Below, piece by piece: positions 7,533 through 61,331 of a stretch of DNA of 64,000 nucleotides. The DNA lies in contig JASFER010000001.1 of the NCBI GenBank assembly GCA_050124755.1, positions 2,391 to 66,390 of the forward strand. Direction: 5' to 3'. Origin of the DNA: Desulfobacteraceae bacterium (GTDB lineage: Bacteria > Desulfobacterota > Desulfobacteria > Desulfobacterales > Desulfosarcinaceae). The position numbers and the translations under genes were made by a program. Numbering within the stretch: position 1 is the stretch's first letter; every line of letters begins with the position of its first letter. The notes under the pieces are model-generated. The model was not told where the DNA came from. It saw only the letters and a list, made by a program, of their open reading frames with translations, and searched no databases.

Positions 7533-7652
7533 GGGCGGATGGTGAAATGCGGTGGCCTCCAAAATGGCATCCGGCAATCCCCACAGACCCGGAAGATAAG
7601 CGCCGATGCCTGCGTGGGTCGTCCCGATGACGTTGACTTCCGCTTCCACCAT
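7533..7652 (-). pseudogene. Remnant of an HDOD-domain gene (about 40 codons survive)
   Basis: VEAEVNVIGTTHAGIGAYLPGLWGLPDAILEATAFHHPPD aligns by eye at 29/40 identities with VEAEEKVIGTNHSCIGAYLLGLWGLPEAILDATAFHHSHH near the C-terminus of the 404-aa HDOD protein at 46304..47518. Homology ends exactly where repeat copy A begins. Confidence 0.7.
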
Positions 7653-7668
7653 GGAAATGACCTTTTTA

Positions 7669-7840
7669 TTGCATCATTAAAACCTGGTCCTCAGGGTCAG
7701 GTCTGAGACCATTGGCTTTGCCTTCAAAGCAGGGTTCGGAGGGTATAACGTTATTGAACGATGAACATCGAACGTCCAACATCGAACGTCCAATGATGAG
7801 ATCGCTTCGCTCCGCCATCTTATCAATCGGCAGAATACCT
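7669..7840 (+). repeat. Palindromic intergenic element, copy A (right arm missing)
   Basis: About 170 nt are near-identical to copy B. The shared parts are the left flank with its terminator-like hairpin, the left arm TGAACATCGAACGTCCAACATCGAACGTCCAA (7762..7793), and the core GATGAGATCGCTTCGCTCCGCCATCTTATCAATCGGCAGAATACC. Confidence 0.8.
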
Positions 7841-15425: not shown

Positions 15426-15450
15426 GGCCGGCGCAGAGGCCGGCCCTACG
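15426..15450 (-). repeat. REP-like GC-rich hairpin, copy 1
   Basis: GGCCGGCGCAGAGGCCGGCCCTACG is the reverse complement of 61300..61324 at 24/25 positions. A second, unrelated hairpin, GGTCGGGCTCTGTCCCGACC, lies at 15493..15512. Confidence 0.75.
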
Positions 15451-19629: not shown

Positions 19630-20411
19630 TTTCCACTTTCCTCCTTTGAATGGGGCCTCCCGGCGCTACGAACGCCATCATCATAGCTCTTTCCGGCATA
19701 CCAGTTGATTTGGCGGCAGATGCCGCGGATGATACTCACTTCCCCGGCCCGGAGCTGCATTCTGGTGAAAAAAAGCCTGAGCTTATTCATCCAATAATCA
19801 GGATTGTCGGGTTGGATATAATTGATTCGGACCAAAATTTCTTTGACTTGTGCATACATGCCATCCAATTCATGACGGCTGGCCAGGCGGGGCTTAAAAG
19901 GTTTGGGTTCAGGCAAGGTGGCCTTGAATAGCTCATAACATAGCACCATCACCGCATGGGCTAAATTGAGCGAGGTGAACTGTGATGTGGGAATGTTGAC
20001 CAATAGATGACATTGCCGAATTTCCACATTGCTCAAACCGCGATCTTCAGGCCCAAACAGCAGCGCCACCTGATTGTTTTTCGAGATGGGGATGATCGTT
20101 TGGGCCATTTGGATCGGTGAGCAGACCGATTGGCGCTCGCCTCCCAACCTTGCGGTAGTGCCTACGACATAGTTGAAAGGTGCCAGTGCTTTTGGCAGGG
20201 CGTCGAATCGGGTGATGCCTTCGACCACCTTCTTTGCGGCATGGGTGGCCAGGGTTAAGATCCGCTCCATGTCAAAGTTTTCCGGGTCCACCACAATCAA
20301 ACGATCGATGCCCATGTTACAAGCCGCACGGGCGGCTGACCCGATATTTTCAGGGTACCGGGGTTTGTTTAAAATAATGGCAACGTTCTTCAGGTGGATC
20401 CGGTTGGACAT
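19626..20411 (-). CDS. SpoU/TrmH-family RNA 2'-O-methyltransferase (TrmJ-like)
   Basis: Motifs YPENIGSAARA, ALLFGPEDRGLSN and LNLAHAV are present. Confidence 0.75.
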   Translation of the reverse strand: MSNRIHLKNVAIILNKPRYPENIGSAARAACNMGIDRLIVVDPENFDMERILTLATHAAKKVVEGITRFDALPKALAPFNYVVGTTARLGGERQSVCSPIQMAQTIIPISKNNQVALLFGPEDRGLSNVEIRQCHLLVNIPTSQFTSLNLAHAVMVLCYELFKATLPEPKPFKPRLASRHELDGMYAQVKEILVRINYIQPDNPDYWMNKLRLFFTRMQLRAGEVSIIRGICRQINWYAGKSYDDGVRSAGRPHSKEESGK

Positions 20412-20824
20412 TATACCCGCTCAAAAGCGTTAAAGAAATAACCGGTCTCAAAAGCAGCCGTTTCCGGCGCGTCCGAGCCGTGGACCACATTTTTTTCAAT
20501 GTCAGTGGCAAAGTCGCGCCGAATGGTGCCTTCGGCCGCTTCTTTGTAATTGGTGGCACCCATCATTTCACGCCAGCGGCTGATGGCATTTTCGCCTTCA
20601 AGGATCACCACCACCACTGGACCGGAGGTCATAAAGTCGGTCAGACTGTCAAAGAAGGGTCGCTCCTTGTGAACAGCATAAAAGCCCTGGGCCTGGGGTT
20701 TGGTCATTTGGATCATTTTCATGGCCTTGATTTTCAGGCCGTTGCCCTCGATGCGCTTGACAACATCGCCGATGAGACCGCGGGATACGCCATCGGGTTT
20801 TACGATAGCCAACGTTGTTTCCAT
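20411..20824 (-). CDS. ndk: Nucleoside-diphosphate kinase
   Basis: [14 protein letters not shown] N-terminus ([11 protein letters not shown]) and the motif NVVHGSD. The stop overlaps the start of the next gene (TAATG). Confidence 0.9.
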
Positions 20825-20922
20825 GGGTAGGTGTTCCTTTCGTTATAAATAATAATAGGATGTCAATTTGGCCGCTGGTGTAACAGAAGGATTATGGCAA
20901 GTCAACTCGTGTACAATCCGCA

Positions 20923-21057
20923 AGCGTATTAAATCATTAAACGATGAACATCGAACGTTCAACATCGAACGTCCAATGATAAGATCGATTCGCTCCACCA
21001 TCTTATCAATCGACAGAATACCTTGTTGGACGTTGAACGTTGGACGTTCGATGTTCA
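20923..21057 (+). repeat. Palindromic intergenic element, copy C (hairpin module only)
   Basis: The arms at 20945..20976 and 21026..21057 are inverted repeats tiled by TTGGACG/TTGAACG heptamers. The core GATAAGATCGATTCGCTCCACCATCTTATCAATCGACAGAATACC is near-identical to the core of copies A and B. Confidence 0.8.
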
Positions 21058-21131
21058 ATCTTAGCGCTTATGGGATTTATCCCCGCCCCGCGTTTGCTTC
21101 ACCGAGAATCGCCGCCTTGGTGGCGTTAGGG

Positions 21132-30070: not shown

Positions 30071-30204
30071 CGTTGTGTCTCCCTTTAAAAAAAGTTGTTT
30101 ATGCTGCTGTTGGCTGTCTTTTATCAAGCCAGTCTATTACTAAAAATCATACATTTAAATAGTAATGCATTAATTAATCATGTAAAGATGGCGGGGCCAC
30201 TTTA

Positions 30205-30409
30205 TTGCATAAAAAAACCTGGTCTTCAGGGCCAGGTCTGATGCCATTGGTTTTGCCTTCTAATCAGGGTTCGGGGCGTATAACCTTATTGAAAGATGAA
30301 CATCGAACGCCCAACGTCGAACATCCAATGATGAGATCGCTTCGCTCCGCCATCTTATCAATCGACAGAATACCATGTTGGACGTTGGACGTTGGACGTT
30401 CGATGTTCA
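30205..30409 (+). repeat. Palindromic intergenic element, copy B (the most complete copy)
   Basis: The flank with its terminator hairpin spans 30205..30240. The left arm (30297..30328) and right arm (30378..30409) are complementary at 29/32 positions. The right arm is TTGGACG x3 followed by TTCGATGTTCA. The core is 49 nt (30329..30377). Confidence 0.85.
30211..30240 (-). terminator. Rho-independent terminator (minus strand) forming the distal end of element copy B
   Basis: The minus strand reads CAGACCTGGCCCTGAAGACCAGGTTTTTTT, an 8-bp stem followed by U7. It lies downstream of the ATPase gene that ends at 30524. Confidence 0.7.
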
Positions 30410-30523
30410 AGGTTTACCCAAGATATCACCCATCCCCTTACAGGGGTTCAATCAAAGCCGGGTCCTTGGGACCCGGCTTTTTACTCTTGGTTTGATGAGA
30501 TTGAGATGGCTGGCCGGAGGGGC

Positions 30524-46307: not shown

Positions 46308-47518
46308 CCCGGACCATTCTTTTTGTGGATGAAGAAAAATTCGTTCACAAAGCCCTCAAACGCAGTTTCCGAAAGATGCGCCAGGAGTGGGACATGCGTT
46401 TTGCCGCCGGCCCTTCAGAGGCCTTGGAGATTCTGGGCAATGAACCCATGGAGGTGATTGTCACCGAAACGGTTTTTCAAAACCAGAGCGGCTTGGATTT
46501 CTTGAAAATGGTCCGCCAGGGGCACCCTAACAGCGTACGCATCATCCTTTCCGGTTATTCGGACCAGGATGTGGTGCTGAAATCCGTTGATCTGGCCCAT
46601 CAATACCTGGCCAAGCCATGTGAGGATGATGACCTCAAAGCGACCATCAGCAGGGCCTTTATGATTAAAAAGTTGATAAGCCACCAAGGTCTCAGAGAAA
46701 TTGTATCCCGAATCGATTCATTGCCCACCCTGCCGGCGGTCTACATCGAATTGATGGAAGAACTCAAAACCGAAGATGCCTCCATTGAAAAGATCGGTGA
46801 TATCATCTCAAAGGATATTGGGCTTACCGCCAAGATATTGAAGATGGTGAACTCATCCTTTTTCGGCCTGCGCCAACAGATCACCTATCCAGCCAAAGCC
46901 GTAAGCATGCTGGGGCTCGACCTGGTCAAAGCCATGGCGCTGACGTCCGGGACTTTCGACAAATTCAAGCATTTGAAAGTCCCCGGATTCTCATTGGAGC
47001 GGATGTGGGAGCACGCCATGCTCACCAGTGCTTTTGCCAAAATTATCGCACAAGAAGGCGGGATCGACCGCCGGGGCGCCGATACGGTCTTTATGGCCGG
47101 CCTGCTGCATGACATCGGTAAATTGTTAATCGCCGCGCATCTTCCGGACAGCTTTGCCGTTATCAACAAACTGGCCGAAAAAATATCGATCCCCATCGTT
47201 GAGGCCGAAGAAAAGGTCATCGGTACAAACCATTCATGCATCGGCGCTTACCTCCTTGGCTTGTGGGGATTACCTGAGGCCATTCTCGATGCGACGGCAT
47301 TTCACCACAGTCATCATAACTGGTCGGAGGTAAAACTGAACCCAGCCGTCATCATCCATATCGCCGATGCATTGGCCGAATCCGGCGATAATCTCCATCA
47401 ACCCCAGGGAGTTATAGAAGGACTGAACTATGAATACATAGAAAAAGCCGGACTTCTGGCAGACCTGGAAGAGTGGAAAGCTAAATGCGTTAACTTTGTA
47501 ACAAATGGTACGATCTGA
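46304..47518 (+). CDS. Pseudo-receiver + HDOD domain protein
   Basis: The REC-like N-terminus reads FVDEE and VIVTETVF, so Glu occupies the phospho-acceptor position. The HDOD part has LPTLPAVYIEL and LLHDIGKLL. Its ATG overlaps the upstream stop (ATGA). Confidence 0.8.
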   Translation: MTRTILFVDEEKFVHKALKRSFRKMRQEWDMRFAAGPSEALEILGNEPMEVIVTETVFQNQSGLDFLKMVRQGHPNSVRIILSGYSDQDVVLKSVDLAHQYLAKPCEDDDLKATISRAFMIKKLISHQGLREIVSRIDSLPTLPAVYIELMEELKTEDASIEKIGDIISKDIGLTAKILKMVNSSFFGLRQQITYPAKAVSMLGLDLVKAMALTSGTFDKFKHLKVPGFSLERMWEHAMLTSAFAKIIAQEGGIDRRGADTVFMAGLLHDIGKLLIAAHLPDSFAVINKLAEKISIPIVEAEEKVIGTNHSCIGAYLLGLWGLPEAILDATAFHHSHHNWSEVKLNPAVIIHIADALAESGDNLHQPQGVIEGLNYEYIEKAGLLADLEEWKAKCVNFVTNGTI

Positions 47519-51223: not shown

Positions 51224-51233
51224 TATTTCACGC

Positions 51234-51272
51234 TTGGACATTCGACATTCCTCGTTCGATATTCTGCGGTTC
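51234..51272 (-). repeat. Fragment (single arm) of the palindromic element, copy E
   Basis: TTGGACATTCGACATTCCTCGTTCGATATTCTGCGGTTC matches the right arm of copy D (CATTCCTTGTTCGATATTCTGCGGTTC) and also carries a TTGGAC heptamer. Confidence 0.6.
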
Positions 51273-52246
51273 TATTGCTTTTCCCCCGGATTGAGCAACC
51301 GGTCGATATCCTTTTCGAACTTTTCCACGCGGCTTTTATGCAGAATGAACGCATATGGCGTGCCCGAGGAAACCGCCGGGAATTCAATGCTCTCTTCGCT
51401 CGCTTTTTTGAACACCGAGAGGGTATGATCCGCATTTTCTGAATTCAAGGTCACCGTCCAGGCGGGATTTTGCAGACCGTCCCTGGCATTGTCTTCCAGG
51501 TAGTCGTCGCATTTGAGCCTGGAGAGATCGTTGATCAGGCTTTCCACAACTGCTTGCCGGGCAACAGTGCCGTTTGAATCCATCCATTGAATTTTGGTTT
51601 GAGGGTTCTGCTCCTCTTTTTTCTCGTCGGTTGGTGTTTCTTTTTCCTGAAGCACTTCTTGCTTGGTTAAGGTGAGGTTTTGTTTGCCCTTGGCAATGGT
51701 CAGGCCTGTTATATCGCTTTTTTCATAAGCCAGCACCGTTTCATCGCGCAGATCATCCACCGTGTTGTCGAAAGTGAAGTGAAGGTTCCCCCGGGCATGG
51801 TAGACCTTGGGGTCATCAGCCAGCCGGACAAAAGTATGCTGGCTGGTGGGCGCCTGACGGCCGATGGCGAAATCGCGCAAAATCTCCTTGTCTGCAAAAG
51901 CCTGGACGCGCACCTTTTTATCGTCGGCAAGATCGTAGCGTTCGTAGTTTTCGGATTCGGAAACCAAGGCCGTGATGGACAGGTCCACAGCGGCCTTGAG
52001 CATGTTTTTAACCTTGATGCTATCCGCCTTGTAGGCTTTGGGGCCGAAGGTCCACTGATCGTCCTTTTTGTTGAGTTCAATGGTGCCGTCGCTTTTGCCG
52101 ATCACAAGGCGGTTGATTTTATTGCTCTCCACTTCCGACAACCGGGGCAGTTCGAAGTGGGTTTGGTCTTTGGAGCGCATCATCAGGTAGGCGCCCAAGG
52201 CTGCGATGACCAATAACAGAATCAGATACTCTTTTTTCAGTTTCAT
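51272..52246 (-). CDS. DUF4340-like protein (accessory component of GldG-type ABC clusters)
   Basis: It has an N-terminal TM anchor followed by a beta-rich repeat pattern. It is the last gene of the ABC/GldG cluster. Confidence 0.6.
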   Translation of the reverse strand: MKLKKEYLILLLVIAALGAYLMMRSKDQTHFELPRLSEVESNKINRLVIGKSDGTIELNKKDDQWTFGPKAYKADSIKVKNMLKAAVDLSITALVSESENYERYDLADDKKVRVQAFADKEILRDFAIGRQAPTSQHTFVRLADDPKVYHARGNLHFTFDNTVDDLRDETVLAYEKSDITGLTIAKGKQNLTLTKQEVLQEKETPTDEKKEEQNPQTKIQWMDSNGTVARQAVVESLINDLSRLKCDDYLEDNARDGLQNPAWTVTLNSENADHTLSVFKKASEESIEFPAVSSGTPYAFILHKSRVEKFEKDIDRLLNPGEKQ

Positions 52247-61299: not shown

Positions 61300-61331
61300 C
61301 GTAGGGCCGGCCTCCGCGCCGGCCGGTTTTA
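61300..61331 (+). terminator. REP-like GC hairpin (copy 2) acting as the terminator of the radical SAM gene
   Basis: CGTAGGGCCGGCCTCCGCGCCGGCC has a 7-bp stem GGCCGGC/GCCGGCC followed by GGTTTTA. It is the inverted match (24/25) of 15426..15450. Confidence 0.65.

Follow-up and report, generated by a model that had tools for sequence, protein, structure and literature searches.

Heptamer-armed foldback repeats of a Desulfobacteraceae genome are probable gene-less relatives of S23p cassettes

INTRODUCTION

The intervening sequences (IVSs) in the 23S rRNA genes of Coxiella burnetii, Leptospira and Brucella are foldback elements with terminal inverted repeats that pair in a stem of ~28 to 32 bp (PMC4990558). 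The Coxiella IVS, which RNase III excises, combines a 28-bp terminal stem and GACAGAT heptamers with an S23p open reading frame (ORF); the S23p protein is a pentamer with a four-helix-bundle fold, its function is not known, and IVSs are regarded as selfish DNA (PMC4990558). Here we describe repeats of similar build, in which an inverted pair of heptamer-tiled arms encloses a conserved core, in a 64,000-nt stretch of a Desulfobacteraceae genome (assembly GCA_050124755.1, contig JASFER010000001.1; the window). We consider it likely that these loci represent two sister subfamilies of one Desulfobacterales superfamily of noncoding foldback insertion elements, which are gene-less forms of S23p cassettes. 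Like IVSs, the elements fold back through terminal inverted repeats with a stem of that size, they have short tandem heptamers, which in Coxiella (GACAGAT) lie beside the ORF, and their full-length members carry an S23p gene in the loop; we also share the view that they are selfish DNA. They differ from IVSs in that they are intergenic between protein genes instead of being located in rRNA, are mostly gene-less, have the whole arm tiled with heptamers, and contain an asymmetric core of 45 nt. None of the window copies lies in helix 9, 25 or 45 of 23S rRNA, the sites of IVSs. Since they are located between protein-coding ORFs, we regard them as relatives of IVSs and not as IVSs in the strict sense.

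Long inverted arms made of short tandem repeats in variable number, with an optional coding middle, are also known from the eukaryotic Foldback (FB) transposons, which provide an analogy only: they are eukaryotic, much larger and unrelated in sequences and proteins. In Geobacter metallireducens, the "global regulator binding sites" of classes 1 to 3 are likewise paired arrays on opposite strands (Aklujkar et al. 2009, PMC2700814). They comprise 3 to 5 tandem repeats of 7 to 9 nt with variable spacing and are dispersed in dozens of copies in this related lineage; in contrast to the elements described here, they were read as regulator sites, their description mentions neither a conserved core nor a link to S23p, and their sequences are unrelated (PMC2700814). 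The GGGAATC arrays of Xanthomonas and the GGGGA(T/C)T arrays of Nostoc are intergenic heptamers too, often in convergent stem-loop pairs (Rehm et al. 2015, PMC4692102). These arrays lie nearer to the end of the upstream gene and vary in length between relatives; they differ in being G-rich, were studied as quadruplex formers, and had no core described and their relation to S23p not examined (PMC4692102). In the literature that we searched, no paper was found that unites IVSs, the Geobacter sites and the Xanthomonas arrays as one S23p-linked mobile class. We know of no common explanation so far offered for heptamer-armed hairpin repeats.

RESULTS

Two sister subfamilies have homologous cores and different arms

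The window corresponds to positions 2391 to 66390 of contig C1 in the source assembly, G000 (6.43 Mb, 484 contigs). In the following, Cn stands for a contig, Gnnn for a genome within a set of 31 genomes of the family, and Lnnn for a locus of the S23p survey; window features are given in plus-strand coordinates. A repeat search of the window returned long copies at 7679 to 7839 (copy A), 30214 to 30374 (copy B) and 20862 to 21022 (copy C). According to an inverted-repeat search, the arms of copy B (30297 to 30328 and 30378 to 30409; 32 nt each, with 49 nt between them) pair at 29 of 32 positions (91%), which reproduces the value of the original prediction, and copy C has an arm pair at 20945 to 20976 and 21026 to 21057. 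Within the right arm of copy B, Tandem Repeats Finder (TRF) detected 3.4 units of GTTGGAC with 100% identity (30377 to 30400), and within the left arm a 14-nt period. The 45-nt core of copy B (30330 to 30374) shows a single difference from that of copy A (7795 to 7839) and three differences from that of copy C (20978 to 21022), so that the core is indeed almost invariant among the three copies. Furthermore, each strand of the hairpin modules folds much more stably than dinucleotide shuffles (z scores between -5.4 and -7.9). We conclude from the repeat search, TRF and the folding scores that the predicted family of heptamer-armed palindromes with a conserved core is real and well above what chance would give.

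The original prediction assigned five loci to one family. This was correct for copies A, B and C, which constitute the H-type, while the loci at 390 to 558 and 51234 to 51272 belong to a sister subfamily, the D-type, which has a homologous core and different arms. The full D-type element spans positions 424 to 560; it has arms of GAA-N4 tiles (GAACCGCAGAATATCGAACAAGGAA...), matches the nhmmer D model with 156 bits and has fold z scores of -6.2 and -5.4. Its core (471 to 515) reads GGTATTCTGTC...GGCAGAGCGCAGCGATTCC and is inverted relative to copies A to C. The second D-type locus (51225 to 51273) is a right-arm fragment that corresponds to positions 90 to 138 of the D model and takes up the 48 nt that separate two convergent ORFs.

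Each element has an inverted pair of arms with ~5 tandem 7-nt tiles per arm. The core consensus consists of GGTATTCTGYC, an AT-rich loop and GRCAGA-GCGNAGCGA-YYCC, with TCTGYCAT and ATGRCAGA forming a mini-stem; the motif GCGNAGCGA is nearly invariant, and conservation is stronger in the core than in the arms. H- and D-type elements alike show TTC (GAA when read on the opposite strand) at 7-nt intervals that keep a constant phase to the core boundary. The ends of the D-type are TG...CA-like (41 copies).

The complete unit of copy B is modular and measures ~285 nt (30201 to 30485). It begins with a left "P" module (30201 to 30249; TTTATTGCAT...ACCTGGTCTTCAGGGCCAGGTC; nhmmer P model), which contains a GC hairpin and a minus-strand 7-T tail. 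A spacer (30250 to 30296) follows that is common to copy A and other full units in blastn and nhmmer alignments. The ~135-nt hairpin comprises the left arm (30297 to 30328) with heptamers of the GAACATC/GAACGCC/CAACGTC type, the asymmetric core GATGAGATCGCTTCGCTCCGCCATCTTATCAATCGACAGAATACC (30330 to 30374) with a TCGCTNCGCTC bulge, the mini-stem, the AT-rich loop and CAGAATACC, and the right arm (30378 to 30409), in which the 3.4 GTTGGAC units are followed by GTTCGAT GTTCA. The right "T" module (30432 to 30485; ATCCCCTTACAGGGG...AAAGCCGGGTCCTTGGGACCCGGCTTTTT; nhmmer T model) harbors a terminator-like hairpin at 30454 to 30480. The extents of the copies thus needed correction: copy B gained the right-hand T module, and copy A (7665 to 7839), which is composed of a P module (7665 to 7714), the spacer, a left arm (7757 to 7793) and the core, ends at the core and has neither a right arm nor a T module. 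Copy C (20938 to 21062) is a hairpin module alone, without P and T. Beside the full D-type element lies a truncated P module (381 to 412), which is a direct repeat with 7660 to 7691. All window copies sit between long protein-coding ORFs, and the short ORFs that cover them are translated repeat sequence, both as predicted.

A small ORF (MAERSD...) on the opposite strand of the core was considered as coding and rejected. Its apparent synonymous changes coincide with the mini-stem, its length varies among copies (29 versus 50 aa), and downstream it runs through frame-shifting heptamers.

S23p genes are located between arms of the same kind and, in some cases, core halves

Five matches to PF05635 (23S_rRNA_IVP) were found in G000, and each of them is flanked by inverted tiled arms. 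One of the genes (C95:9205-9492) encodes a 123-aa S23p protein (PF05635, 55.9 bits; PDB 2rld, E value 1.8e-17) and has GAACGTCGAACATCGAACGTCCAACATCGAACG and CGTTCGACGTTGGACGTTGAACGTTCGATGTTGGACG on its two sides, the same H-type arms as in copies A to C. The S23p proteins that were checked scored 55.9 and 118 bits against PF05635. Among the 31 family genomes, 21 have S23p genes, and at 28 of the 32 S23p loci with enough flanking sequence, the gene is surrounded by inverted arms with a period of 7 to 8 (scores of 34 to 83, versus at most 29 for shuffles).

The S23p cassette between queA and tgt carries GG(T/A)ATTCTGYC after its left arm and GRYAGAATWCC before its right arm, the motifs with which the core of the miniatures begins and ends. 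In the S23p cassette of G016, ATGACGGAGCACAGCGACTCC, the other core half with a GCNCAGCGA insert, directly precedes the right arm. Since core halves border the S23p genes, the miniature core represents the inner part of a cassette that has no gene in its AT-rich loop. The location of S23p genes between arms of the same kind and, in some cases, core halves therefore marks the window copies as ORF-less miniature relatives of S23p foldback cassettes. Arms and core halves are shared by the elements and the cassettes. The segment GCGGAGCGNAGCGA is possibly derived from the "AEG..R.S..DF" coding segment of S23p, but the match is too short.

The queA-tgt cassette has arms of the GTTTTAG/AGTGTTA type and is found in at least 10 family genomes (C137:7140-7448 in G000; loci L132 to L137, L140, L142 and L153). 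It is a long-lived, vertically inherited copy, with a tandem duplicate in G005.

One congener encodes, beside a reverse transcriptase, a bAvd-like protein (PF22296, 83 bits) that also matches PF05635 (29.8 bits), and this cross-match ties the S23p family to Avd, the accessory protein of diversity-generating retroelements (DGRs). Avd binds RNA and is required for cDNA synthesis (PMC6182149). At this locus (L146; G008:C374:2607-4958), the bAvd-like gene is directly followed by an RVT_1 reverse transcriptase gene (63 bits), with an HRDC-like ORF upstream, and the two genes form a DGR-like pair.

The cassettes also bear on the idea that the repeats are recombination sites of the integron attC kind. 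GTTGGAC and GTCCAAC match GTTRRRY and RYYYAAC, and the imperfect palindrome has an attC-like length. The tiles, however, occur four to six times per arm and not as R/L box pairs, those of sister subfamilies do not match GTTRRRY, and the copies are single and dispersed between housekeeping genes, with no cassette arrays (no search for IntI was made). The architecture is accounted for by the S23p cassettes, and we regard an attC-like identity as extremely unlikely.

The elements are patchily distributed and differ at orthologous sites

Counted over the whole genome, G000 contains ~60 full copies, ~42 of the D-type and 18 of the H-type, and many fragments. A strict core pattern (TCGCTNCGCTCYRYCA-N6-24-RYAGAAYRCC) matched 26 times in G000, 28 times in the congener G004 and once in each of three other genomes, and gave no match in 26 of the 31 family genomes, including six congeners. 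The reversed pattern, used as a control, had no match in any family genome. BLAST with the whole unit revealed the same patchy spread in the family. In a scan of one genome per species, the core pattern marked >100 loci in ~30 Desulfobacteraceae/Desulfobacterales metagenome-assembled genomes (MAGs) among the matches listed. Nearly all of these loci are in MAGs labelled Desulfobacteraceae, Desulfobacterales or Deltaproteobacteria, and the carriers include Desulfosarcina, Desulfococcus, Eth-SRB1/2 and the Olavius Delta 1 symbiont; the few scattered matches outside these groups, in unrelated phyla, have the look of chance hits. At the core loci examined, the arms differ by locus (GAACATC/GAACGTT, D-type, CATTGAG/CATTGGA or GATTTGT; period, ~7 nt), and the two arms of any one element are always complementary, whatever the arm family.

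At the site of copy B, an inverted repeat and ATCATGTAAAG upstream of dnaK are common to eight congeners, and the element follows in G000 only. Six of the other genomes have unrelated sequence at this site, and G007 has a different hairpin element and an inverted T module. At the site of copy C, the flanking genes are syntenic in most congeners. The spacer is without an element in G005, G006, G007 and G008. In G004, it is occupied by an H-type element that lies at a different distance and has an insertion nested in it; G002 has a hairpin whose arms are of the GAAATCG kind, and G011 has an unrelated miniature inverted-repeat transposable element (MITE).

Two conserved blocks were noticed next to these sites. 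The inverted repeat near copy B (window positions 30137 to 30166; ATTACTA-N16-TAGTAAT, then ATCATGTAAAG) keeps its position in 8/8 congeners examined, and it is probably, together with ATCATGTAAAG, the heat-shock operator/promoter of dnaK. In the spacer of copy C, the block GGCCGCTGGTGTAACAGAAGG...GGCAAGTCAAC (20838 to 20900), upstream of the minus-strand gene at 20411 to 20824, is conserved in all congeners, while the rest of the spacer varies; this block may be a regulatory element.

In G000, 47 of the 60 full elements lie between crude ORF calls. The median distance to the adjacent gene is 38 nt for a 3' end and 150 nt for a 5' end, and convergent gene pairs are enriched around the elements (15/47, compared with a background of 19%). 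Furthermore, the elements are targets of other repeats. The AT-rich loop of D-type cores hosts a composite MITE (terminal inverted repeats [TIRs], CGGTTATC...GATAACCG), which itself contains a hairpin-forming doublet of repetitive extragenic palindromic sequences (REPs), i.e., a REPIN, and is associated with an 8-bp duplication. H-type arms are the insertion sites of a third MITE family (TIR, GATGAAGTCGTAAAAAGTC; C87:12950-13080, C241:8450-8597 and C18:24540-24570). The D-type loop is an insertion hot spot (C110:10594-11063, C2:28150-28493 and C150:10548-10700; the duplication in C110 is TAACATAA), and palindromic repeats in G000 are nested to three levels.

In summary, the elements are repeated, patchy and lineage specific, present or absent at orthologous sites, nested, truncated and located near gene 3' ends. 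The patchiness, the site polymorphism, the nesting and truncation, and the 3'-end bias argue for mobile, mildly deleterious DNA rather than for a conserved gene.

These data also bear on the possibility that the repeats are not mobile and form arrays of sites to which a DNA-binding protein of the host attaches, retained for a role in regulation or nucleoid organization. GAA/TTC recurs every 7 nt in core phase across subfamilies and GCGNAGCGA is nearly invariant, as such sites could be, and in G. metallireducens the same architecture has been annotated as pairs of sites for a regulator (PMC2700814). However, sites of this kind do not fit a strict core that is missing from 26 of 31 family genomes and yet occurs 26 to 28 times in two, orthologous positions that are empty or hold different elements, a location near gene 3' ends and not at promoters, or truncated and nested copies. 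We therefore judge a nonmobile regulatory array to be very unlikely.

The shared 90 nt are a separately dispersed scaffold module

The ~90 nt that copies A and B have in common were originally described as ending in a minus-strand intrinsic terminator. The shared segment was confirmed, and it proved to be an independent module. The P module has the consensus TTTATTGCATCATTAAAACCTGGTCCTCAGGGCCAGGTC, and the T module reads ATCCCCTTCCAGGGG..AAAGCCGGGTCC....GGACCCGG plus ATGCTTTAC or TTTTT. With nhmmer, 39 P and 53 T modules were found in G000, including 17 P..T pairs that are 115 to 423 nt apart. The interior of such a pair is an H-type hairpin, a D-type hairpin, a REPIN of the GTAG type or nothing (C31:8760-8875). 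The 90 nt common to copies A and B are therefore a separately dispersed module. H- and D-type elements are often embedded in this P/T scaffold, a second repeat that supplies terminator-like GC hairpins. The 7-T tail of the minus-strand "terminator" in the P module is present in copy B only; the family consensus tail is TTTTAATGATG, and the terminator scan made no call for this structure. The scan did call the plus-strand hairpin in the T module of copy B (30454 to 30480) as a terminator. Since most P tails are TTTTAATG and most T modules finish in ATGCTTTAC, the tails are not U-runs.

In aligned genomic copies, the D-type core has the opposite orientation to the H-type core relative to P and T. 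An invertible switch, in which the core flips between the arms, was considered and rejected, since the orientation is constant within each subfamily (8 H-type versus 7 D-type P-T units). The difference requires no more than a single ancient inversion, or insertion that can occur both ways round.

A sigma-54 promoter in the P module, with TTGCAT as the -12 element, was also considered. A correctly spaced -24 GG is present in only ~4/11 copies and lies outside the repeat, and this candidate was discarded.

Taken together, the scaffold data bear on the suggestion that the unit is a small RNA (sRNA) gene or a 3'-untranslated-region (UTR)/terminator module, transcribed from one strand, with a functional hairpin and a P or T hairpin as the terminator. 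Such a role would agree with the very stable hairpins (z scores of -5.4 to -7.9), with the minus-strand 7-T tail after the P hairpin and the called plus-strand terminator of copy B, with the stronger conservation of the core than of the arms, and with a slight excess of copies (62 of 101) in which the complementary strand of the core is lower in folding energy. This strand preference is weak, however (1.8 ± 5.6 kcal/mol), and there was no Rfam match at the gathering threshold and only chance-level matches at an E-value threshold. P and T also border REPINs or nothing, most of their tails are not U-runs, the core is inverted relative to them in the D-type, and the sigma-54-like -24 element upstream of TTGCAT is not within the repeat. 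Furthermore, the copies are truncated, nested and insertion polymorphic, and their sites are empty in congeners. The minus-strand sRNA gene or 3'-UTR module of the original prediction is thus not supported, in view of the independent terminator module, the inverted D-type core, the weak strand preference and the lack of an Rfam match, and we consider it quite unlikely.

The elements resemble MITEs and REPs without their transposases

The original prediction also called the repeats MITE/REP-like. This holds insofar as they are multicopy, patchy, present or absent at orthologous sites, truncated and nested; it does not hold for the expected transposase or REP-associated tyrosine transposase (RAYT) partner, in place of which S23p was found, or for a target duplication. 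Like MITEs, the elements are small (~135 nt) and noncoding, have inverted termini and longer gene-bearing relatives, and exist in many insertion-polymorphic copies. Unlike MITEs, they have no target duplication and no transposase parent, their interior and not their termini is best conserved, and their arms are tandem arrays of variable length. The other MITE, which is inserted in D-type loops, has an 8-bp duplication, unlike the D-type itself. A classical MITE is disfavored by the flanks of 41 D-type copies, which show no target duplication, and by the failure to find a transposase-bearing parent.

With REPs, their mosaics (bacterial interspersed mosaic elements [BIMEs]) and REPINs, the elements share the intergenic palindromes near 3' ends, the BIME-like mosaics of modules, the hairpin doublets and the lack of target duplication. 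They could accordingly be hairpins mobilized as single-stranded DNA by the IS200/IS605-like Y1 (RAYT) transposases of the genome. G000 does have eight Y1_Tnp (PF01797) matches, long hairpins without target duplication are what Y1 transposition predicts, and a true GTAG REP/REPIN family coexists in G000, nested in the same P-T scaffold. However, all eight Y1 genes lack H or D arms on their flanks, and two have the GTAG REP (GTAGGGCCGGCCTCTG) there instead; the search for RAYT and IS200/IS605-type genes was thus positive for the genes and negative for their association with the elements. In addition, the H and D elements have no conserved GTAG/CTAC tag and flank no RAYT gene, REPs are characterized neither by tandem-heptamer arms nor by a conserved core inside, and the full-length relatives encode S23p and not RAYT. 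Mobilization of the REP/REPIN type is therefore an unlikely explanation.

The GTAG REP itself (GGCCGGCGCAGAGGCCGGCCCTACG) occurs in the window at 15426 to 15450 and 61300 to 61324. It has ~400 motif matches in the genome, forms REPIN doublets and flanks two Y1/RAYT genes (C218:3342-3662 and C10:877-1227).

Weighing the relation to S23p cassettes

Several results weigh against our interpretation of the loci as gene-less forms of S23p cassettes. Movement was not directly observed, and no precise empty site was resolvable, the nearest genomes being only ~80% identical. No consistent target-site duplication was present in the flanks of 41 D-type copies. No arm pair was found to enclose a transposase gene, and the longer relatives found all carry S23p. 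Moreover, G000 has no S23p cassette with D-type arms, and G004, despite its 28 cores, has none with H-type arms, which leaves a dependence on S23p unproven. S23p could be cargo and not the mobilizing factor, and the strong conservation of the core could reflect a host function, as a protein-binding site or an RNA motif.

With these points considered, kinship with S23p cassettes is still the explanation that we favor, and a mechanism can be proposed. The elements would behave as selfish mobile DNA, and the miniatures would probably be copied in trans, either by machinery tied to S23p-bearing masters or by a host enzyme. The TG...CA ends and the lack of a visible target duplication argue against classical DDE cut-and-paste, and the missing duplications together with the foldback form would favor a single-strand or template-switch route. 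A sequence-specific protein may be indicated by the near-invariant GCGNAGCGA and by the fixed phase of the GAA-N4 tiles; S23p is the obvious, unproven candidate. More speculatively, and with low confidence, we suggest that the core and ~5 phased GAA-N4 heptamers are the putative cis recognition site of a pentameric, Avd-like S23p, with one subunit per tile, and that both cassettes and miniatures are copied by S23p acting with a reverse transcriptase or nuclease of the cell. If this is true, S23p-dependent copying would be a transposase-free mobility system present over many bacterial phyla and a source of rRNA intervening sequences.

By analogy with these rRNA intervening sequences, the stem of at least 30 bp would be a substrate of RNase III when transcribed. 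Cutting would then cleave or insulate transcripts and would not produce a functional sRNA. If so, copy B may separate the upstream REC-GspE transcript from dnaK.

Until now, the features of such repeats were known piecemeal, from rRNA intervening sequences, the Geobacter "regulator sites" and the heptamer arrays of Xanthomonas and Nostoc. What is new is that one asymmetric core is conserved across the order and combines with interchangeable arms, that it expands in bursts within individual genomes, and that P and T modules form a mosaic scaffold. To our knowledge, S23p (PF05635) is a large family with solved structures and no known function. Core halves that flank S23p genes, together with the traveling core and the bursts, turn a vague class of repeats into a testable hypothesis of masters and miniatures. 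In practical terms, the repeats generate spurious ORFs, break assemblies (484 contigs here) and mimic sRNA genes or terminators.

Two minor observations concern other sequences. In G000, the 23S rRNA gene is represented by its 3' end only, at a contig edge (C77:1-400; sarcin-ricin loop at C77:153), with a Y1 transposase gene ~0.8 kb downstream. Beside copy A, the segment at 7540 to 7654 in the window has a 115-nt inverted match (77%) at 47193 to 47307, which is a remnant of an HDOD gene outside the repeat family.

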